Shown piece by piece: positions 3,092-39,665 of a DNA stretch of 64,000 bases. Position 1 is the first letter of the stretch; every line of letters starts with the position of its first letter. The position numbers and the translations under genes were made by a program. This stretch comes from Escherichia phage VEc20, in the sequence record MN022785.1. One strand, 5' to 3'. The notes beneath the pieces are model-generated. The model did no database searches, had not been told where the DNA came from, and was given only the letters and a program-made list of their open reading frames with translations.

Positions 3092-3099
3092 TAAGAATG

Positions 3100-3561
3100 T
3101 TATTTGATTTGTTTAGCAGACCAAATGCGGTCTTTGATGATTTTTTGGAGGTCTTCAACATACTCTAGGTCATGAGCATGTGGATTATCTTTGAAACTAT
3201 GAGCTCGCGCAAGTTTCTGGCCTTCGGTCTTAATTATCAAAAGTTCTTTAAGAATTGCTTCATACCTAGAGATAATTCCTTTAGCAATATTTTTTTCTTG
3301 TGCTGCTTTAGGGTCAGCCTTAGGAGCAGGTTTACCAGAAGGTTTTTCGAAAGCCGCGCCAGTAGCAACCAGGCTTTTCCAGGCGGTGGTAACATAGTTA
3401 CCCACAAAGCCTTCAGCTCTCATATCGTCGTAGAACTTGTACCGAGATTCGTCAGAAGCATCTTTATAAGAATATTTACCAGCTTTAATAGCAGCAGTTG
3501 CTACAGCGCGAACATCTGAAGCGGATGCTTCGGTCATTAAAAATTGAGCATAAGTTTTCAT
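3100..3561 (-). CDS. internal-protein-like late protein with capsid-targeting-type N-terminus (MKTYAQFLMTE)
   Basis: 153 aa; AGGAAA RBS; own late promoter TATAAATA upstream and rho-independent terminator downstream; N-terminus resembles T4 IP leader MKTYQEFIAE. Confidence 0.65.
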   Translation of the reverse strand: MKTYAQFLMTEASASDVRAVATAAIKAGKYSYKDASDESRYKFYDDMRAEGFVGNYVTTAWKSLVATGAAFEKPSGKPAPKADPKAAQEKNIAKGIISRYEAILKELLIIKTEGQKLARAHSFKDNPHAHDLEYVEDLQKIIKDRIWSAKQIK

Positions 3562-3589
3562 TGTTATTTCCTGTGTTAATTAACTCATC

Positions 3590-3597
3590 TATTTATA
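3590..3597 (-). promoter_or_regulatory. T4 late promoter TATAAATA (gene 3100..3561)
   Basis: plus-strand tatttata; AGGAAA RBS and ATG 29 nt downstream on minus. Confidence 0.6.
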
Positions 3598-3934: not shown

Positions 3935-4285
3935 TTAATATTCTTTTAAAGAATCAATATATTCACGGCGTTTACGCCACAAATCAATTGCTTCATACGC
4001 GGATTCAGCATTTCGAATTAGCCGGCATTTATGTAAAGACTTATGATTTTGATATTGTGTAGATAACGGAATTGTATCTAAAAGGTCTTTACGATCAAAA
4101 TATTCGTAACCATCTAAACCAAATGAACGATTTTTGAGAAATTGCCAATGACCATATTCGTTTTCGACATAAACATAATCTGCATGCTGATAAAGCAAAT
4201 TAATTACACGTTCAGAAATAACAGTATCATTATGATTAAAATAGAATGTTAAATCATGAACTACTAAATAAACATTACCTTTCAT
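3935..4285 (-). CDS. hypothetical protein (116 aa) embedded between tRNA-Arg and the stable RNA
   Basis: ORF with GAGGAAAAT RBS directly before ATG; no recognisable motif. Confidence 0.6.
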   Translation of the reverse strand: MKGNVYLVVHDLTFYFNHNDTVISERVINLLYQHADYVYVENEYGHWQFLKNRSFGLDGYEYFDRKDLLDTIPLSTQYQNHKSLHKCRLIRNAESAYEAIDLWRKRREYIDSLKEY

Positions 4286-4303
4286 ATTTTCCTCACTTAT
4301 AAT

Positions 4304-4379
4304 TGGTCGAGGCAGTAGGGATCGAACCTACGACCTAGGACTTAGAAGGTCCTTGCTCTTCCTTCTGAGCTATGCCCCG
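4304..4379 (-). tRNA. tRNA-Arg (anticodon TCT)
   Basis: hand-folded cloverleaf: acceptor CGGGGCA/TGCCTCG, anticodon loop CTTCTAA, T-arm GTAGG-TTCGATC-CCTAC, CCA encoded. Confidence 0.85.
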
Positions 4380-4383
4380 TAAT

Positions 4384-4459
4384 TGGGGTGACCGATGGGA
4401 GTCGAACCCATGACTACGAGAATCACAATCTCGAGTTCTACCAACTGAACTACGGCCAC
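4384..4459 (-). tRNA. tRNA-His (anticodon GTG)
   Basis: acceptor GTGGCCG/CGGTCAC, anticodon stem CGAGA/TCTCG loop TTGTGAT, T-arm ATGGG-TTCGACT-CCCAT, CCA encoded; no encoded G-1. Confidence 0.7.
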
Positions 4460-4573
4460 ATTAATACCTACTCCAACAATCAAGATGTCTTCACACGAAA
4501 TTAAGAGAAGAGTGATCAGTTCAACCCCTATAATCGCGTCAAGTAGATATTAATGTGACAGTTGTCACAAATT

Positions 4574-4648
4574 TGGCGGACGTGATAGGATTCGAACCTA
4601 TAACCAATCGCTTAACAGGCGATCGCTCTGCCATTGAGCTACACATCC
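4574..4648 (-). tRNA. tRNA-Asn (anticodon GTT)
   Basis: acceptor GGATGTG/CACGTCC, anticodon stem ATCGC/GCGAT loop CTGTTAA, T-arm ATAGG-TTCGAAT-CCTAT, CCA encoded. Confidence 0.8.
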
Positions 4649-4652
4649 AAAT

Positions 4653-4739
4653 TGGTGGGGAGTGGTGGAGTCGAACCACCCGAGTCGCAATGACAATGAA
4701 TTTACAGTCCACACCGCTACATCTACGGGATAACTCCCC
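4653..4739 (-). tRNA. tRNA-Tyr (anticodon GTA), class II with long variable arm; D-arm fold uncertain
   Basis: acceptor GGGGAGT/ACTCCCC perfect, T-arm GGTGG-TTCGACT-CCACC, anticodon loop CTGTAAA with G-U-containing stem, 87 nt. Confidence 0.55.
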
Positions 4740-4748
4740 AAATTAATT

Positions 4749-4823
4749 TGGTGGCCCTGGGTGGAATTGAACCACCATCTGGCGATTATGAGTCGCTTGC
4801 TTGAACCTTCCAGCTACAGGGCC
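4749..4823 (-). tRNA. tRNA with anticodon CAT (Met-type; probably the T4-like lysidine-modified tRNA-Ile)
   Basis: acceptor GGCCCTG/CAGGGCC, anticodon loop CTCATAA, T-arm GGTGG-TTCAATT-CCACC, CCA encoded. Confidence 0.8.
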
Positions 4824-4824
4824 T

Positions 4825-4900
4825 TGGTGCTGATTGACGGAATCGAACCGCCGACCTTCTCATTACAAGTGAGTTGCTCTACCTACTGAGCTAAATCAGC
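4825..4900 (-). tRNA. tRNA-Thr (anticodon TGT)
   Basis: acceptor GCTGATT/AATCAGC, D-arm GCTC-AGTAGGTA-GAGC, anticodon loop CTTGTAA, T-arm GGCGG-TTCGATT-CCGTC. Confidence 0.85.
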
Positions 4901-4905
4901 AAAAC

Positions 4906-4995
4906 TGGCGGAGGCGATAGGATTTGAACCTATGAGTCGCCGGAGCGACTGCCGGTTTTCAAGACCGGTGCATTAAACCACTCTGCCACGCCTCC
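4906..4995 (-). tRNA. tRNA-Ser (anticodon TGA), class II
   Basis: acceptor GGAGGCG/CGCCTCC, anticodon stem CCGGT/ACCGG loop CTTGAAA, long variable arm, T-arm ATAGG-TTCAAAT-CCTAT. Confidence 0.85.
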
Positions 4996-4997
4996 AG

Positions 4998-5071
4998 TCT
5001 CCGTGGCAGGATTTGAACCTACGACATTCTGCTCCCAAAGCAGACGCTCTACCAAACTGAGCTACACGGAG
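4998..5071 (-). tRNA. tRNA-Pro (anticodon TGG); CCA not encoded
   Basis: acceptor CTCCGTG/CACGGAG, anticodon stem TCTGC/GCAGA loop TTTGGGA, T-arm GTAGG-TTCAAAT-CCTGC. Confidence 0.8.
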
Positions 5072-5081
5072 TAAATTAAAT

Positions 5082-5155
<74 letters not shown>

Positions 5156-5160
5156 AAATT

Positions 5161-5247
5161 TGGTGCGAGAAGTGGGACTCGAACCCACAAGGAAATCATT
5201 CCGCAGCATTTTAAGTGCTGTGCCTTTACCAATTTGACCATTCTCGC
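5161..5247 (-). tRNA. tRNA-Leu (anticodon TAA), class II
   Basis: acceptor GCGAGAA/TTCTCGC, anticodon stem CAGCA/TGCTG loop CTTAAAA, T-arm GTGGG-TTCGAGT-CCCAC, 87 nt. Confidence 0.85.
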
Positions 5248-5248
5248 G

Positions 5249-5321
5249 CTGGGAATAAAGGACTCGAACCTTTGCATCTAGCAGTCAAAGTGCTATGCCT
5301 TACCAACTTGGCTAATTCCCA
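5249..5321 (-). tRNA. tRNA-Gln (anticodon TTG); CCA not encoded
   Basis: acceptor TGGGAAT/ATTCCCA (U1-A72), anticodon stem TAGCA/TGCTA loop CTTTGAC, T-arm AAAGG-TTCGAGT-CCTTT. Confidence 0.8.
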
Positions 5322-12751: not shown

Positions 12752-13246
12752 ATGGAAGGTTCTTCTATCGACGTCACCTTTACCGCTCAATTAGAAACAG
12801 GTGAAACGTTAGTATCTATAAATATAACTAGTTACGAAGAAACTCCTGGGGTTTTAGTAGAAGAAAATCGCTTATATGGAACATATGAATCTGTGTTTGG
12901 ATTTGGAAATGACGCGTTGAAATATCGTTTAGGCGATGAATTTAAAACTGCTGCTTCATGGGAAGAACTTCCTACTGATTCTGATACTCAGCTGTATTTG
13001 TGGAAAGCTCCTCAAAATCTCCAGAAGACATTCACTTACGAAGTAACATTAATATATGACTACCAAGAACAAAGTGAATCTGGAGGTTCTGGTAGTAATT
13101 CTAGGTCATCTTCTGATACTACTGAACCGACGGATCCTCCTGCTCCAGTAAGAAAAACACTTGTTAAAAATTATACTAAAACTATAGTTGGAAATTGGAG
13201 TCGTTGGGCTAATAAACTGAGAAGCTATGTATATGAGAGGCCATAA
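12752..13246 (+). CDS. 5.1: gp5.1-like hypothetical protein (start uncertain; ORF track starts 12689 with TTG)
   Basis: ATG at 12752 has GGAG RBS; position between 5 and 5.4. Confidence 0.5.
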
Positions 13247-13540
13247 ATGTCAGGATTAAGTTATGATAAGTGTGTTACTGCTGGCCATGAAGCGTGGCCT
13301 CCAACAGTTGTGAATGCTACGCAAAGTAAAGTATTCACTGGAGGAATTGCTGTTCTAGTAGCAGGCGATCCAATTACAGAACATACAGAAATTAAAAAGC
13401 CATATGAAACACATGGCGGAGTGACACAACCTAGAACTTCTAAGGTATATGTCACTGGAAAGAAAGCTGTTCAAATGGCTGATCCAATATCATGCGGTGA
13501 TACTGTGGCTCAGGCATCATCTAAAGTATTCATTAAATAG
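13247..13540 (+). CDS. 5.4: gp5.4 PAAR-repeat spike tip protein
   Basis: 97 aa as T4 gp5.4; PAAR-like sequence. Confidence 0.85.
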
Positions 13541-30974: not shown

Positions 30975-32954
30975 ATGACTTTATTATCTCCGGGCATTGA
31001 GCTCAAAGAAACTACGGTTCAAAGCACCGTGGTTAATAACTCTACTGGTACAGCAGCTTTGGCCGGTAAATTCCAGTGGGGTCCTGCTTTTCAGATTAAA
31101 CAGGTTACAAACGAAGTAGATTTAGTTAATACTTTTGGTCAACCTACAGCTGAAACTGCTGACTATTTTATGTCTGCAATGAATTTCTTACAATATGGAA
31201 ATGATTTGCGAGTTGTGCGCGCTGTCGATAGAGATACCGCTAAAAACTCATCTCCGATTGCTGGTAATATTGAATACACAATTTCTACCCCAGGTAGTAA
31301 CTACGCGGTTGGAGATAAAATCACGGTCAAATATGTTTCAGAAGATGTTGAAACAGAAGGTAAAATTACCGAAGTAGATGCTGATGGAAAAATTAAGAAA
31401 ATTAATATTCCTACTGCAAAAATTATTGCTAAAGCTAAAGAAGTTGGCGAATACCCAACATTAGGTTCTAACTGGACTGCAGAAATTTCTTCATCTTCTT
31501 CCGGTTTAGCTGCAGTAATAACTCTTGGAAAAATTATTACTGATTCTGGTATTTTATTAGCTGAAATTGAAAATGCTGAAGCTGCTATGACAGCGGTTGA
31601 CTTTCAAGCAAATCTTGAAAAATATGGAATTCCAGGAGTAGTAGCTCTCTATCCAGGCGAATTAGGCGATAAAATTGAAATTGAAATCGTATCTAAAGCT
31701 GACTATGCGAAAGGAGCTTCTGCATTACTCCCAATTTATCCAGGTGGTGGTACTCGTGCATCTACTGCTAAAGCGGTGTTTGGATATGGACCACAAACTG
31801 ATTCACAGTACGCTATTATAGTTCGTCGAAATGATGCTATTGTTCAAAGCGTTGTTCTTTCAACTAAGCGTGGTGAAAAAGATATTTACGATAGTAACAT
31901 CTATATCGATGACTTTTTCGCAAAAGGTGGTTCAGAATATATTTTTGCAACTGCACAAAACTGGCCAGAAGGCTTCTCTGGAATTTTAACTCTGTCTGGT
32001 GGATTATCATCAAATGCTGAAGTAACAGCAGGAGATTTGATGGAAGCTTGGGACTTCTTTGCTGACCGTGAATCTGTTGACGTTCAACTGTTTATTGCGG
32101 GTTCTTGTGCTGGTGAATCTTTAGAAACAGCATCTACTGTCCAAAAACACGTCGTTTCAATTGGTGATGCTCGTCAAGATTGCTTAGTATTGTGCTCACC
32201 ACCGCGTGAAACTGTAGTTGGAATTCCTGTAACCCGTGCTGTTGATAACTTAGTCAATTGGAGAACTGCAGCAGGTTCATACACTGATAATAACTTTAAT
32301 ATCAGTTCAACCTACGCAGCAATTGATGGTAACTACAAATATCAGTATGACAAATATAATGATGTGAATCGTTGGGTCCCATTAGCAGCTGATATTGCTG
32401 GATTGTGTGCAAGAACTGATAACGTATCTCAGACTTGGATGTCTCCAGCTGGTTATAATCGTGGCCAGATTCTTAACGTTATTAAACTTGCTATTGAAAC
32501 TCGCCAGGCTCAGCGCGACCGTTTATACCAAGAAGCTATCAACCCAGTAACTGGTACAGGTGGTGATGGTTACGTATTGTATGGTGATAAAACAGCTACT
32601 TCTGTTCCTTCTCCATTTGATCGTATTAACGTTCGTCGTCTGTTTAATATGTTGAAAACGAATATCGGACGTAGTTCAAAATATCGTTTGTTCGAATTAA
32701 ACAACGCGTTTACTCGTTCATCATTCCGCACAGAAACTGCCCAATACTTACAGGGAATTAAAGCTCTCGGTGGAATTTATGAATATCGTGTAGTTTGCGA
32801 TACAACAAATAACACTCCGTCAGTAATTGATAGAAATGAGTTTGTTGCAACATTCTACATCCAACCGGCTCGTAGTATAAATTATATCCAACTTAATTTC
32901 GTCGCAACTGCTACTGGTGCAGATTTTGATGAGTTAACTGGTCTTGCAGGTTAA
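30975..32954 (+). CDS. 18: tail sheath protein
   Basis: 659 aa as T4 gp18. Confidence 0.95.
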   Translation: MTLLSPGIELKETTVQSTVVNNSTGTAALAGKFQWGPAFQIKQVTNEVDLVNTFGQPTAETADYFMSAMNFLQYGNDLRVVRAVDRDTAKNSSPIAGNIEYTISTPGSNYAVGDKITVKYVSEDVETEGKITEVDADGKIKKINIPTAKIIAKAKEVGEYPTLGSNWTAEISSSSSGLAAVITLGKIITDSGILLAEIENAEAAMTAVDFQANLEKYGIPGVVALYPGELGDKIEIEIVSKADYAKGASALLPIYPGGGTRASTAKAVFGYGPQTDSQYAIIVRRNDAIVQSVVLSTKRGEKDIYDSNIYIDDFFAKGGSEYIFATAQNWPEGFSGILTLSGGLSSNAEVTAGDLMEAWDFFADRESVDVQLFIAGSCAGESLETASTVQKHVVSIGDARQDCLVLCSPPRETVVGIPVTRAVDNLVNWRTAAGSYTDNNFNISSTYAAIDGNYKYQYDKYNDVNRWVPLAADIAGLCARTDNVSQTWMSPAGYNRGQILNVIKLAIETRQAQRDRLYQEAINPVTGTGGDGYVLYGDKTATSVPSPFDRINVRRLFNMLKTNIGRSSKYRLFELNNAFTRSSFRTETAQYLQGIKALGGIYEYRVVCDTTNNTPSVIDRNEFVATFYIQPARSINYIQLNFVATATGADFDELTGLAG

Positions 32955-32962
32955 TTGATTAT

Positions 32963-32976
32963 GGGGCTTCGGCCCC
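32963..32976 (+). terminator. stable hairpin GGGGC-UUCG-GCCCC after gene 18 (terminator/processing element; no strong U-tract)
   Basis: perfect 5-bp GC stem with UUCG tetraloop directly after gp18 stop. Confidence 0.4.
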
Positions 32977-32993
32977 TATTCTCGAGGAAACAA

Positions 32994-33599
32994 GTGATTA
33001 TTTCTAAGTTTGTTACAATAAAACCAAGAAATCATTCAAAAATGTGGTCGACAATTCTGGGATATAAAGTATCATATCATGATACAGTATCTGTTCCAAT
33101 AGAATTAATGCCAAAGAATAGTAATAAAATAGTTGACGCTAAATGTGATTTGTGTGGTATTAAATTTAGTAGAAGCATTCAGCTTTTAAATAGAACACCC
33201 ACACATGCATGTAGAAAATGTAGCATTAAACAAGTTGCTATTAAAAATTCGGAAGTTCAATCTGGAATAAGTAGACCATGGCAAAGAGGTGATAAACATC
33301 CTCGATGGACTGGTAAAAGAAAAGAGTTTGCATTATATGCTAGTAGAGTTCATTCTATAACTAAGTCAGCTAAAATAAGAAAAATTTGGTCAAAATGGCC
33401 GAATGCTGATAAAATAGGAGTGTGTGGCGTAGAAGGTGCTTACCAACTCGATCATAAAGTATCTATCAAATATGGATTTGATAATTTAATTCCGCCGGAA
33501 ATTATAGCAAGCGTAAAAAATTTAGAAATAATCACTTGGGAATCTAACCGAGAAAAGTCAAAAAGAAATAGCGTAGATCTTTGGGATTTACTAGAATGA
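32994..33599 (+). CDS. HNH homing endonuclease (free-standing), start uncertain
   Basis: C-terminal HNH motif QLDHKVSIKYG...NLEIITWESNREK plus Cys pairs CDLC and CRKC; GTG at 32994 has AGGAAA RBS; ORF-track TTG start 32955 lies in the hairpin. Confidence 0.7.
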   Translation: MIISKFVTIKPRNHSKMWSTILGYKVSYHDTVSVPIELMPKNSNKIVDAKCDLCGIKFSRSIQLLNRTPTHACRKCSIKQVAIKNSEVQSGISRPWQRGDKHPRWTGKRKEFALYASRVHSITKSAKIRKIWSKWPNADKIGVCGVEGAYQLDHKVSIKYGFDNLIPPEIIASVKNLEIITWESNREKSKRNSVDLWDLLE

Positions 33600-33684
33600 T
33601 TCTAAAGGCCTGTTTCGGCAGGCCATATAAATACACTATATCCTTAATTCTTTAATTCTATATGCCCTAGGTTAAACATAGGGA

Positions 33685-33692
33685 TATAAATA
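33685..33692 (+). promoter_or_regulatory. T4 late promoter TATAAATA (gene 19)
   Basis: exact TATAAATA 15 nt upstream of gp19 ATG. Confidence 0.65.
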
Positions 33693-33706: not shown

Positions 33707-34198
33707 ATGTTTGTAGATGATGTAACACGAGCGTTTGAATCTGGTGATTTTGCTCGACCTAACTTATTCCAAGTAGAAATTTCTTATCTTGGACAAAATT
33801 TTACATTCCAATGTAAAGCCACTGCTTTACCAGCTGGTATTGTAGAAAAAATTCCAGTCGGATTTATGAACCGTAAAATTAACGTAGCAGGCGATCGTAC
33901 ATTCGATGACTGGACTGTTACAGTAATGAACGATGAAGCTCATGATGCTCGCCAGAAGTTTGTTGATTGGCAAAGCATTGCTGCTGGTCAAGGAAACGAA
34001 ATTACTGGTGGAAAACCTGCAGAGTATAAAAAGAGCGCTATTGTTCGTCAATATGCTCGTGATGCTAAAACAGTAACAAAAGAAATTGAAATTAAAGGTC
34101 TGTGGCCTACTAACGTGGGTGAACTTCAATTAGATTGGGATTCAAACAATGAAATCCAAACCTTTGAAGTAACTCTTGCTCTCGATTATTGGGAATAA
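33707..34198 (+). CDS. 19: tail tube protein
   Basis: 163 aa as T4 gp19. Confidence 0.9.
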   Translation: MFVDDVTRAFESGDFARPNLFQVEISYLGQNFTFQCKATALPAGIVEKIPVGFMNRKINVAGDRTFDDWTVTVMNDEAHDARQKFVDWQSIAAGQGNEITGGKPAEYKKSAIVRQYARDAKTVTKEIEIKGLWPTNVGELQLDWDSNNEIQTFEVTLALDYWE

Positions 34199-39582: not shown

Positions 39583-39597
39583 TCTTTGACGATTTAA

Positions 39598-39626
39598 GGG
39601 ACCTTCGGGTCCCTTTAGTTGTTTTT
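39598..39626 (+). terminator. rho-independent terminator after gene 23
   Basis: hairpin GGGACCTTCGGGTCCC followed by TTTAGTTGTTTTT. Confidence 0.65.
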
Positions 39627-39630
39627 ATGG

Positions 39631-39638
39631 TATAAATA
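39631..39638 (+). promoter_or_regulatory. T4 late promoter TATAAATA (gene 24)
   Basis: exact TATAAATA 28 nt upstream of gp24 ATG. Confidence 0.65.
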
Positions 39639-39665
39639 AATCATATAAACCAAAAGGAAAGCGCA

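Follow-up and report, generated by a model that had tools for sequence, protein, structure and literature searches.

Introduction

I-HmuI, an HNH enzyme of the modular phage type, is intron-encoded and carries its HNH domain at the N-terminus. The Mob enzymes of phage T4 and I-HmuI nick DNA rather than cleave it (PMC2988022; PMC13096335), and genes resembling Hef have been reported beside tail-tube genes (LIMEstone F-LimVIII). For phage T6, one unnamed 'other HNH', possibly the gene described here, has been listed (Petrov et al. 2010). This gene, ORF19.1, lies between tail-sheath gene 18 and tail-tube gene 19 of Escherichia phage VEc20 (MN022785.1), in a stretch of 64,000 nucleotides (nt) that we refer to as the window and to which positions refer unless a locus is named. 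An original prediction, made from the letters of the window alone, had proposed that ORF19.1 encodes an HNH homing endonuclease. Our comparisons support this at the computational level, and we consider ORF19.1 to be a free-standing HNH homing endonuclease gene with a probability of roughly 0.7.

An insertion polymorphism between genes 18 and 19

When aligned with T4 and 12 further empty-site loci, the window shows an inserted segment at positions 32955-33599 (plus strand), where 643-645 nt stand in place of the 7-9 nt (tacggtgca) of the empty site. The T4 junction reads GGT TAA tacggtgca TTCTAAAGGCCTGTTTCGGCAGGCC without any open reading frame (ORF) between genes 18 and 19, and the blastn alignment shows a gap of 643 nt in VEc20 versus 7 nt in T4. 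Using a 100-nt probe spanning the T4 junction, we found the empty site unbroken in 382 phage records. The allele of VEc20, here called T6-type, occurs in 69 T4-like records and a second, RB3-type allele in 48, the latter found in RB3, RB7 and HP3, being 52% identical to the T6-type and differing in its N-terminal domain. Empty sites and the two alleles together make up the 498 records matching the junction probe. The borders of the insertion are the same among T6-type, RB3-type and empty records, and its presence is sporadic among near-identical genomes. The predicted insertion of a roughly 200-amino-acid (aa) ORF at a junction that is empty in T4 is thus borne out, and the refuting outcome of this comparison across T-even genomes, a gene present at the junction in all close relatives including T4, did not materialise, as 77% of T4-like records have no gene at this site.

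The coding sequence (32994-33599, plus strand; 201 aa followed by TGA) has a G+C content of 32%, compared with 38-39% in genes 18 and 19, and ORFs of this type are undamaged in 232 of 238 records. The VEc20 gene corresponds to T6 ORF19.1, with 98.5-99% aa identity to the T6 and PST copies and a matching position and GTG start codon. Depositors mostly label it 'hypothetical protein', with a few records giving 'HNH endonuclease' or 'homing endonuclease', and a literature search for gp19.1/ORF19.1 returned only unrelated phage and Candida papers and no experimental or comparative study. ORF19.1 is a long-deposited, uncharacterised T6 gene, and its presence in VEc20 is fairly ordinary.

Homologs and allele history

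In at least eight phage genera, a homolog immediately follows the tail-sheath gene on its 3' side. Carriers include VR7 (Gaprivervirus), S16 (Gelderlandvirus), PSD9 and Bp7 (Dhakavirus) and the Acinetobacter phage Melin (Twarogvirinae), as well as the Aeromonas phage AS-zj (Emmerichvirinae), the Shewanella phage Thanatos-2 and the Sinorhizobium phage phiM12, in which the gene following the homolog is not gp19. Allele relationships do not follow those of gp18. T6-type and RB3-type carriers have gp18 C-termini that are 100% identical with alleles at 52%, VR7 and the carrier at locus L013 share 99% in gp18 and 34% in the alleles, and PSD9 and Bp7 share 100% and 38%, respectively. For the RB3-type allele, the nearest relatives are the alleles of S16 (63%) and Thanatos-2 (62%).

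Within Tequatrovirus, the two alleles are 88-100% identical in DNA over the leader, the first codons and the 3' third, and 73% identical in protein over the C-terminal part, with N-terminal domains that are unrelated (32-55% DNA, 29% protein). Escherichia phage 121/2022-2B encodes a T6-type allele in which the RB3-type segment AKIIGGIN replaces PEIIASVK (ORF residues 168-175), indicating a recombinant of both. The two Gaprivervirus alleles have separate insertion points within the same 18-19 spacer. The same C-terminal nuclease domain is also encoded at another locus, in Acinetobacter phage 133, where a 273-aa ORF splits rnlA into rnlA-A and rnlA-B (locus L038, 1570-3647). This protein shares 47% identity with the ORF19.1 product over 58 aa of the catalytic domain, and the depositors of phage 133 had remarked on its likeness to T6 ORF19.1. 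The family therefore shows the marks of homing genes: sporadic presence with clean borders, a history that disagrees with that of the flanking genes, and family members located elsewhere in phage genomes.

In the region of Bp7 at locus L022, 3769-4350 and 4408-5630, a further putative homing endonuclease is encoded between genes 19 and 20. It is annotated as 'HNH' but has weak SegE-type GIY-YIG and NUMOD3 matches, and gene 20 of this phage is annotated as two pieces.

Protein architecture

The predicted protein consists of an N-terminal domain (residues ~1-100) with a Cys4 zinc knuckle and helix (C51, C54, C73 and C76; 33144-33221, plus strand) and a C-terminal HNH-like ββα-metal domain (33426-33563, plus strand) with β1 at residues 150-154 (YQLDH), β2 at 177-181 and a helix at 182-188. 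In an alignment of 43 family members, the four cysteines are 90-100% conserved, and the C-terminal signature Y-Q-L-D153-H154-x2-S-x3-G ... N176-L ... W-x2-N185-R-x-K is invariant, including D153, H154, G161, N176, N185 and K188. These residues agree with the C-terminal HNH motif and the two Cys pairs that had been read from the sequence. The N-terminal zinc-finger domain is presumed to be a DNA-recognition module; 15 of the 43 members have a sub-threshold Pfam match to DUF4379, a treble-clef zinc finger.

In the AlphaFold model, which is confident (predicted local distance difference test score 91.6), the D-H pair ends the strand 150-154, N176 precedes the strand 177-181 and N185 lies in the helix 182-188. 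The modelled domain has the ββα-metal arrangement that defines the HNH/His-Me finger superfamily, with a two-helix insertion of ~22 residues between the His strand and the Asn-Leu strand. D153, H154, N176 and N185 would supply the features expected of a His-Me finger, namely a general-base His ending β1, a structural Asn and a metal ligand in the helix. Foldseek searches against viral models returned family members first, followed by proteins named HNH, homing endonuclease or NUMOD, among them a BFVD protein with a name echoing the I-HmuI structure entry (E=1.4e-5). The two best structural matches, 4h9d and 5h0o, are small phage- or prophage-type HNH nickases, 5h0o being the GVE2 enzyme.

A profile of the C-terminal 69 residues retrieved 4094 clusters among 1.84 billion representatives, 976 of these at E≤1e-10, and the ORF19.1-type catalytic domain is almost always C-terminal in them. 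Across 91 wider relatives of this domain the D, H, G, N and N positions are invariant, and the N-termini comprise DUF7487 (16), resolvase-type helix-turn-helix (HTH; 9-12) and NUMOD3 (8) domains, classic DNA-binding modules of homing endonucleases. Pfam HNH_4 was detected in one of the 43 family members (E=0.078) and in three of the 91 relatives (best E=3.5e-4). Judged by its modelled fold, the ORF19.1 protein is an HNH variant outside current curated models. Two sets of PDB sequence matches were discarded as spurious: eukaryotic zinc fingers and the kinetoplastid protein mS66, which were the only matches of the HMMER profile, and leucine-rich-repeat proteins matching the C-terminal domain, in which 'IPPEIIGxIxNLEIIxWxxN' mimics one repeat unit.

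The gene 18 end and a possible target

We compared the flanks of 22 Tequatrovirus loci, including five T6-type and four RB3-type carriers. The last ~90 nt of the tail-sheath gene (32862-32954, plus strand; CGTAGTATAAATTATATCCAACTTAATTTCGTCGCA, containing TATAAAT at 32876) form one insert-linked haplotype in 5/5 T6-type loci and a variant of it in 4/4 RB3-type loci; more than ~100 nt upstream of the insert, and within gene 19, the sequence is reshuffled regardless of the insert. An exact match to the 54-nt T6-type haplotype is present in 66 records, compared with 69 insert carriers. At -58/-52 relative to the gene 18 stop codon, carriers of both Tequatrovirus alleles have the synonymous codons AAT (Asn) and GTC (Val), and 12 of 13 sampled empty sites differ there. 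Across genera, the S-I-N-Y codons are mostly TCG/AGT-ATA-AAT-TAT in carriers and AGC-ATC-AAC-TAC in empty-site congeners. The codon pattern is suggestive of a short gene 18 fragment moving along with the ORF19.1 gene, and plain linkage may also account for the association between haplotype and insert. Because of the insert-linked gene 18 end and the codon pattern of carriers, we infer, with mild preference, a target on the gene 18 side.

Proposed mechanism and alternative explanations

We propose that ORF19.1 encodes a two-module, monomeric enzyme made late in infection, in which the N-terminal zinc finger would recognise a specific DNA sequence and the C-terminal HNH domain would cut DNA, with H154 as general base and the metal held by D153 and N185. 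When a carrier and a phage with an empty junction infect the same cell, the enzyme could nick or cleave the empty-site genome within the 18-19 spacer or close to the 3' end of gene 18, and T4 recombination-dependent repair on the carrier template would copy the gene together with a short gene 18 tract into the empty site. Nicking appears the likelier chemistry, by analogy, because the protein has a single HNH unit. Nuclease activity, the choice between a nick and a double-strand break, the position of the target, self-protection of the carrier and homing itself are all inferred.

Several observations weigh against a homing endonuclease. Foldseek searches against the PDB gave nothing below E=0.1, Pfam found no HNH match in the VEc20 protein, and no HNH chain was among the PDB sequence-profile matches, such that the link of ORF19.1 to HNH enzymes at the sequence level remains weak. 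Moreover, ~20 near-identical haplotypes occur at empty sites, including those of RB14 and G28. These two phages carry the carrier bases at every candidate position, so the AAT/GTC pair at -58/-52 was rejected as a diagnostic immunity single-nucleotide polymorphism, and no such polymorphism was found.

The catalytic domain could serve a purpose other than homing, as a domesticated or beneficial accessory nuclease directed at host DNA or at co-infecting phages as a weapon, or as an HNH partner of the terminase (genes 16/17) of the HK97 gp74 or GVE2 kind. The nickases at the top of the structural matches, with 5h0o from GVE2, would fit this role, as would the position of ORF19.1 one gene downstream of terminase gene 17 and the 232 of 238 undamaged ORFs, which suggest that function is maintained; HEG-like (homing endonuclease gene-like) HNH genes near terminases can indeed be packaging factors (PMC10448857). 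However, 77% of T4-like records lack the gene and T4 packages its DNA without one, the constant neighbour is the sheath gene and not the terminase gene, a relative is located inside rnlA, and phages that are otherwise nearly identical carry alternative alleles whose N-terminal domains are unrelated. We therefore regard an accessory or packaging role as unlikely. Vertical inheritance of an ancestral spacer resident that shows no active mobility and was lost many times, as in T4, is improbable in our estimation. Homologs do occupy the same position in very distant phages of the T4 superfamily, including phiM12, and some empty sites retain a carrier-type gene 18 end, consistent with loss. Such a history is at odds with allele identities of 52% or 38% beside gp18 identities of 100%, and of 34% beside 99%, with the two different insertion points in the Gaprivervirus spacer, and with the 121/2022-2B allele being a recombinant of both Tequatrovirus alleles. 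The switch of serine codon family (AGC to TCG) and the ATA-AAT-TAT codons shared by carriers of different genera likewise suggest imported DNA.

It is very unlikely, finally, that the protein is not a nuclease at all and instead binds DNA or RNA through its zinc finger as a regulator of late tail-gene expression, with a C-terminal motif merely resembling HNH. The gene does sit between two late genes, sequence profiles place its product in no HNH family, and the treble-clef-like zinc finger is the only domain detected by sequence. Yet the positions that are invariant in the 91 relatives are the catalytic and metal-binding D, H, N and N, whereas the zinc-finger cysteines are not invariant, relatives having HTH or NUMOD3 modules in their place; the fold matches are nucleases, and the gene is dispensable in most relatives.

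Signals around the insert and expression

Two hairpins flank the coding sequence of the putative homing endonuclease. The first, GGGGC-UUCG-GCCCC (32963-32976, plus strand; -10.8 kcal/mol), directly follows the gene 18 stop codon; it is common to the T6-type and RB3-type alleles and absent from T4, and is hence part of the insert. The second, GGCCUGU-UUCG-GCAGGCC (33607-33624, plus strand; -12.8 kcal/mol, z=-3.1), is resident at the right border of the insert and corresponds to the hairpin that follows gene 18 in T4, such that in VEc20 it lies downstream of ORF19.1. Since neither hairpin has a U-tract and a terminator scan found none, the label 'terminator hairpin' finds no support. Two late-promoter motifs, TATAAATA, begin at 33626 and 33685 (33626-33692, plus strand) upstream of gene 19 (33707-34198); T4 has the identical pair, which is therefore outside the insert. 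The original prediction had placed the ORF between a gene 18 terminator hairpin and the gene 19 late promoter, of which the downstream late promoters stand, and the upstream element is an insert-borne hairpin.

Translation of ORF19.1 could start from the Shine-Dalgarno sequence GAGG at 32984-32987 and the GTG start codon at 32994-32996 (plus strand), neither of which is sequestered beyond chance in the predicted fold of the leader RNA (z=-0.33). A search for a dedicated promoter detected none in the 39-nt leader, and sigma-70-like matches were not enriched (7 versus 4.8±2.1 expected). The only promoter candidate is the late-promoter-like TATAAAT(T) at 32876 inside gene 18, a 7/8 match that is also present at some empty sites. 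Given a leader without a promoter, ORF19.1 is probably expressed by read-through, from late transcripts that leave gene 18 through the first hairpin. In VR7, the homolog is preceded by a hairpin with a 9-bp stem (-14.1 kcal/mol; locus L002, 2965-2990), and a perfect late-promoter motif TATAAATA overlaps the loop and 3' arm of this hairpin, a promoter that the VEc20 allele lacks. The VR7 layout is similar to the combinations of hairpin and late promoter that other T4 endonuclease genes are described as having.

Other differences from T4

As had been predicted, the homing-endonuclease content of the window differs from that of T4, with segD missing and segE retained; segC is missing as well. Between genes 23 and 24, where segD is absent, 60 nt replace 789 nt of T4 (39593-39654), and segE is present, T4 positions 112057-112674 falling inside a block of 95.5% identity. 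The segC gene is missing together with gene 5.3 (557 nt of T4, at 13243-13248), as is the T4 e.7 region (399 nt) at ~2507-2555. ARAGORN identified 11 tRNAs in the cluster at 3935-5321, including His, Asn, Tyr and Met, compared with eight in the T4 annotation. T4 has segB in the middle of this cluster, where VEc20 has the extra tRNAs and a 116-aa ORF (PHROG 3355, no assigned function). A further ~500 nt (3094-3595) do not align to T4 and contain a 153-aa ORF on the minus strand (3100-3561; PHROG 2280, no assigned function).

Among the other genomes compared, the large terminase of Thanatos-2 seems to be encoded by two adjacent genes (locus L044, 1-1980), the first product of which also matches a Tn7 TnsA-like N-terminal endonuclease domain; the split may represent another nuclease insertion in a packaging gene. 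Tequatrovirus DNA of the 18/19 junction, at ~99% identity or better, is also present in MG010123 (Staphylococcus phage SAJK-IND, 32 kb), OR584013 (Pseudomonas phage PsgM02F) and PV654520 (Pseudomonas phage vB_PSGBLB0006), which probably reflects wrong host labels or contaminated assemblies.

Significance

ORF19.1 leaves the understanding of T-even phages and of HNH enzymes unchanged. Should it prove active, it would add to the homing endonucleases that influence marker exclusion and mosaicism in T-even phages, with the sheath/tube junction, a highly expressed region, as its location. A broader picture is tentative, at somewhat less than even odds: ORF19.1 may represent a large HNH clade unmodelled by Pfam (>4000 clusters at 50% identity), of which one lineage would have repeatedly homed to the region just 3' of the tail-sheath gene in eight or more genera, in three Straboviridae subfamilies and Emdodecavirus, moving between genera and swapping N-terminal DNA-recognition cassettes between conserved gene ends. 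If this is true, such cross-genus homing would be the evidence for HEG transfer that a 2010 review of T4-related genomes called lacking, and the alleles would supply naturally paired recognition domains directed at a single target region. That several genera have different alleles at the same site is relevant to the question of homing genes crossing between genera. With their shared ends and catalytic domain and unrelated N-terminal domains, the two Tequatrovirus alleles could be viewed as a natural nuclease-retargeting experiment. Because this HNH variant escapes every curated model, around 240 phage records are labelled 'hypothetical', as are metagenomic proteins in the thousands that have this C-terminal domain; a dedicated profile would improve their annotation.

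Comparison with known systems

ORF19.1 shares features with several described enzymes. Terminase-associated HNH proteins of the HK97 gp74/GVE2 type are a poor fit, since the gene is absent from 77% of T4-like records and gene 18 separates it from gene 17. Like Hef and I-Bth0305I, the 'EDxHD' (Vsr-like) enzymes, the ORF19.1 protein combines a DNA-binding module at the N-terminus with a nuclease at the C-terminus and is free-standing in T4-related phages; it lacks the EDxHD motif on a Vsr-like α/β fold, and it is set apart from this group by motif and fold. The genes for T4 MobA-E, of which MobE has been characterised, are likewise free-standing, intergenic and sporadic in T-even phages and encode an HNH domain and a zinc finger. 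However, the domain order is reversed, with the HNH domain N-terminal and the zinc finger C-terminal in Mob proteins and the HNH domain C-terminal in ORF19.1, and membership of the Mob family was rejected on this ground and on a probability of 0.1 in the hhalign comparison of the C-terminal profile with MobE. ORF19.1 also resembles the modular phage HNH enzymes of the I-HmuI type, in which one His-Me catalytic unit is tethered to separate DNA-binding modules, and relatives of its C-terminal domain carry NUMOD3 and resolvase-type HTH modules as modular HNH homing endonucleases do. Unlike I-HmuI, the ORF19.1 family is free-standing, has its HNH domain at the C-terminus and contains the two-helix insertion of ~22 residues.
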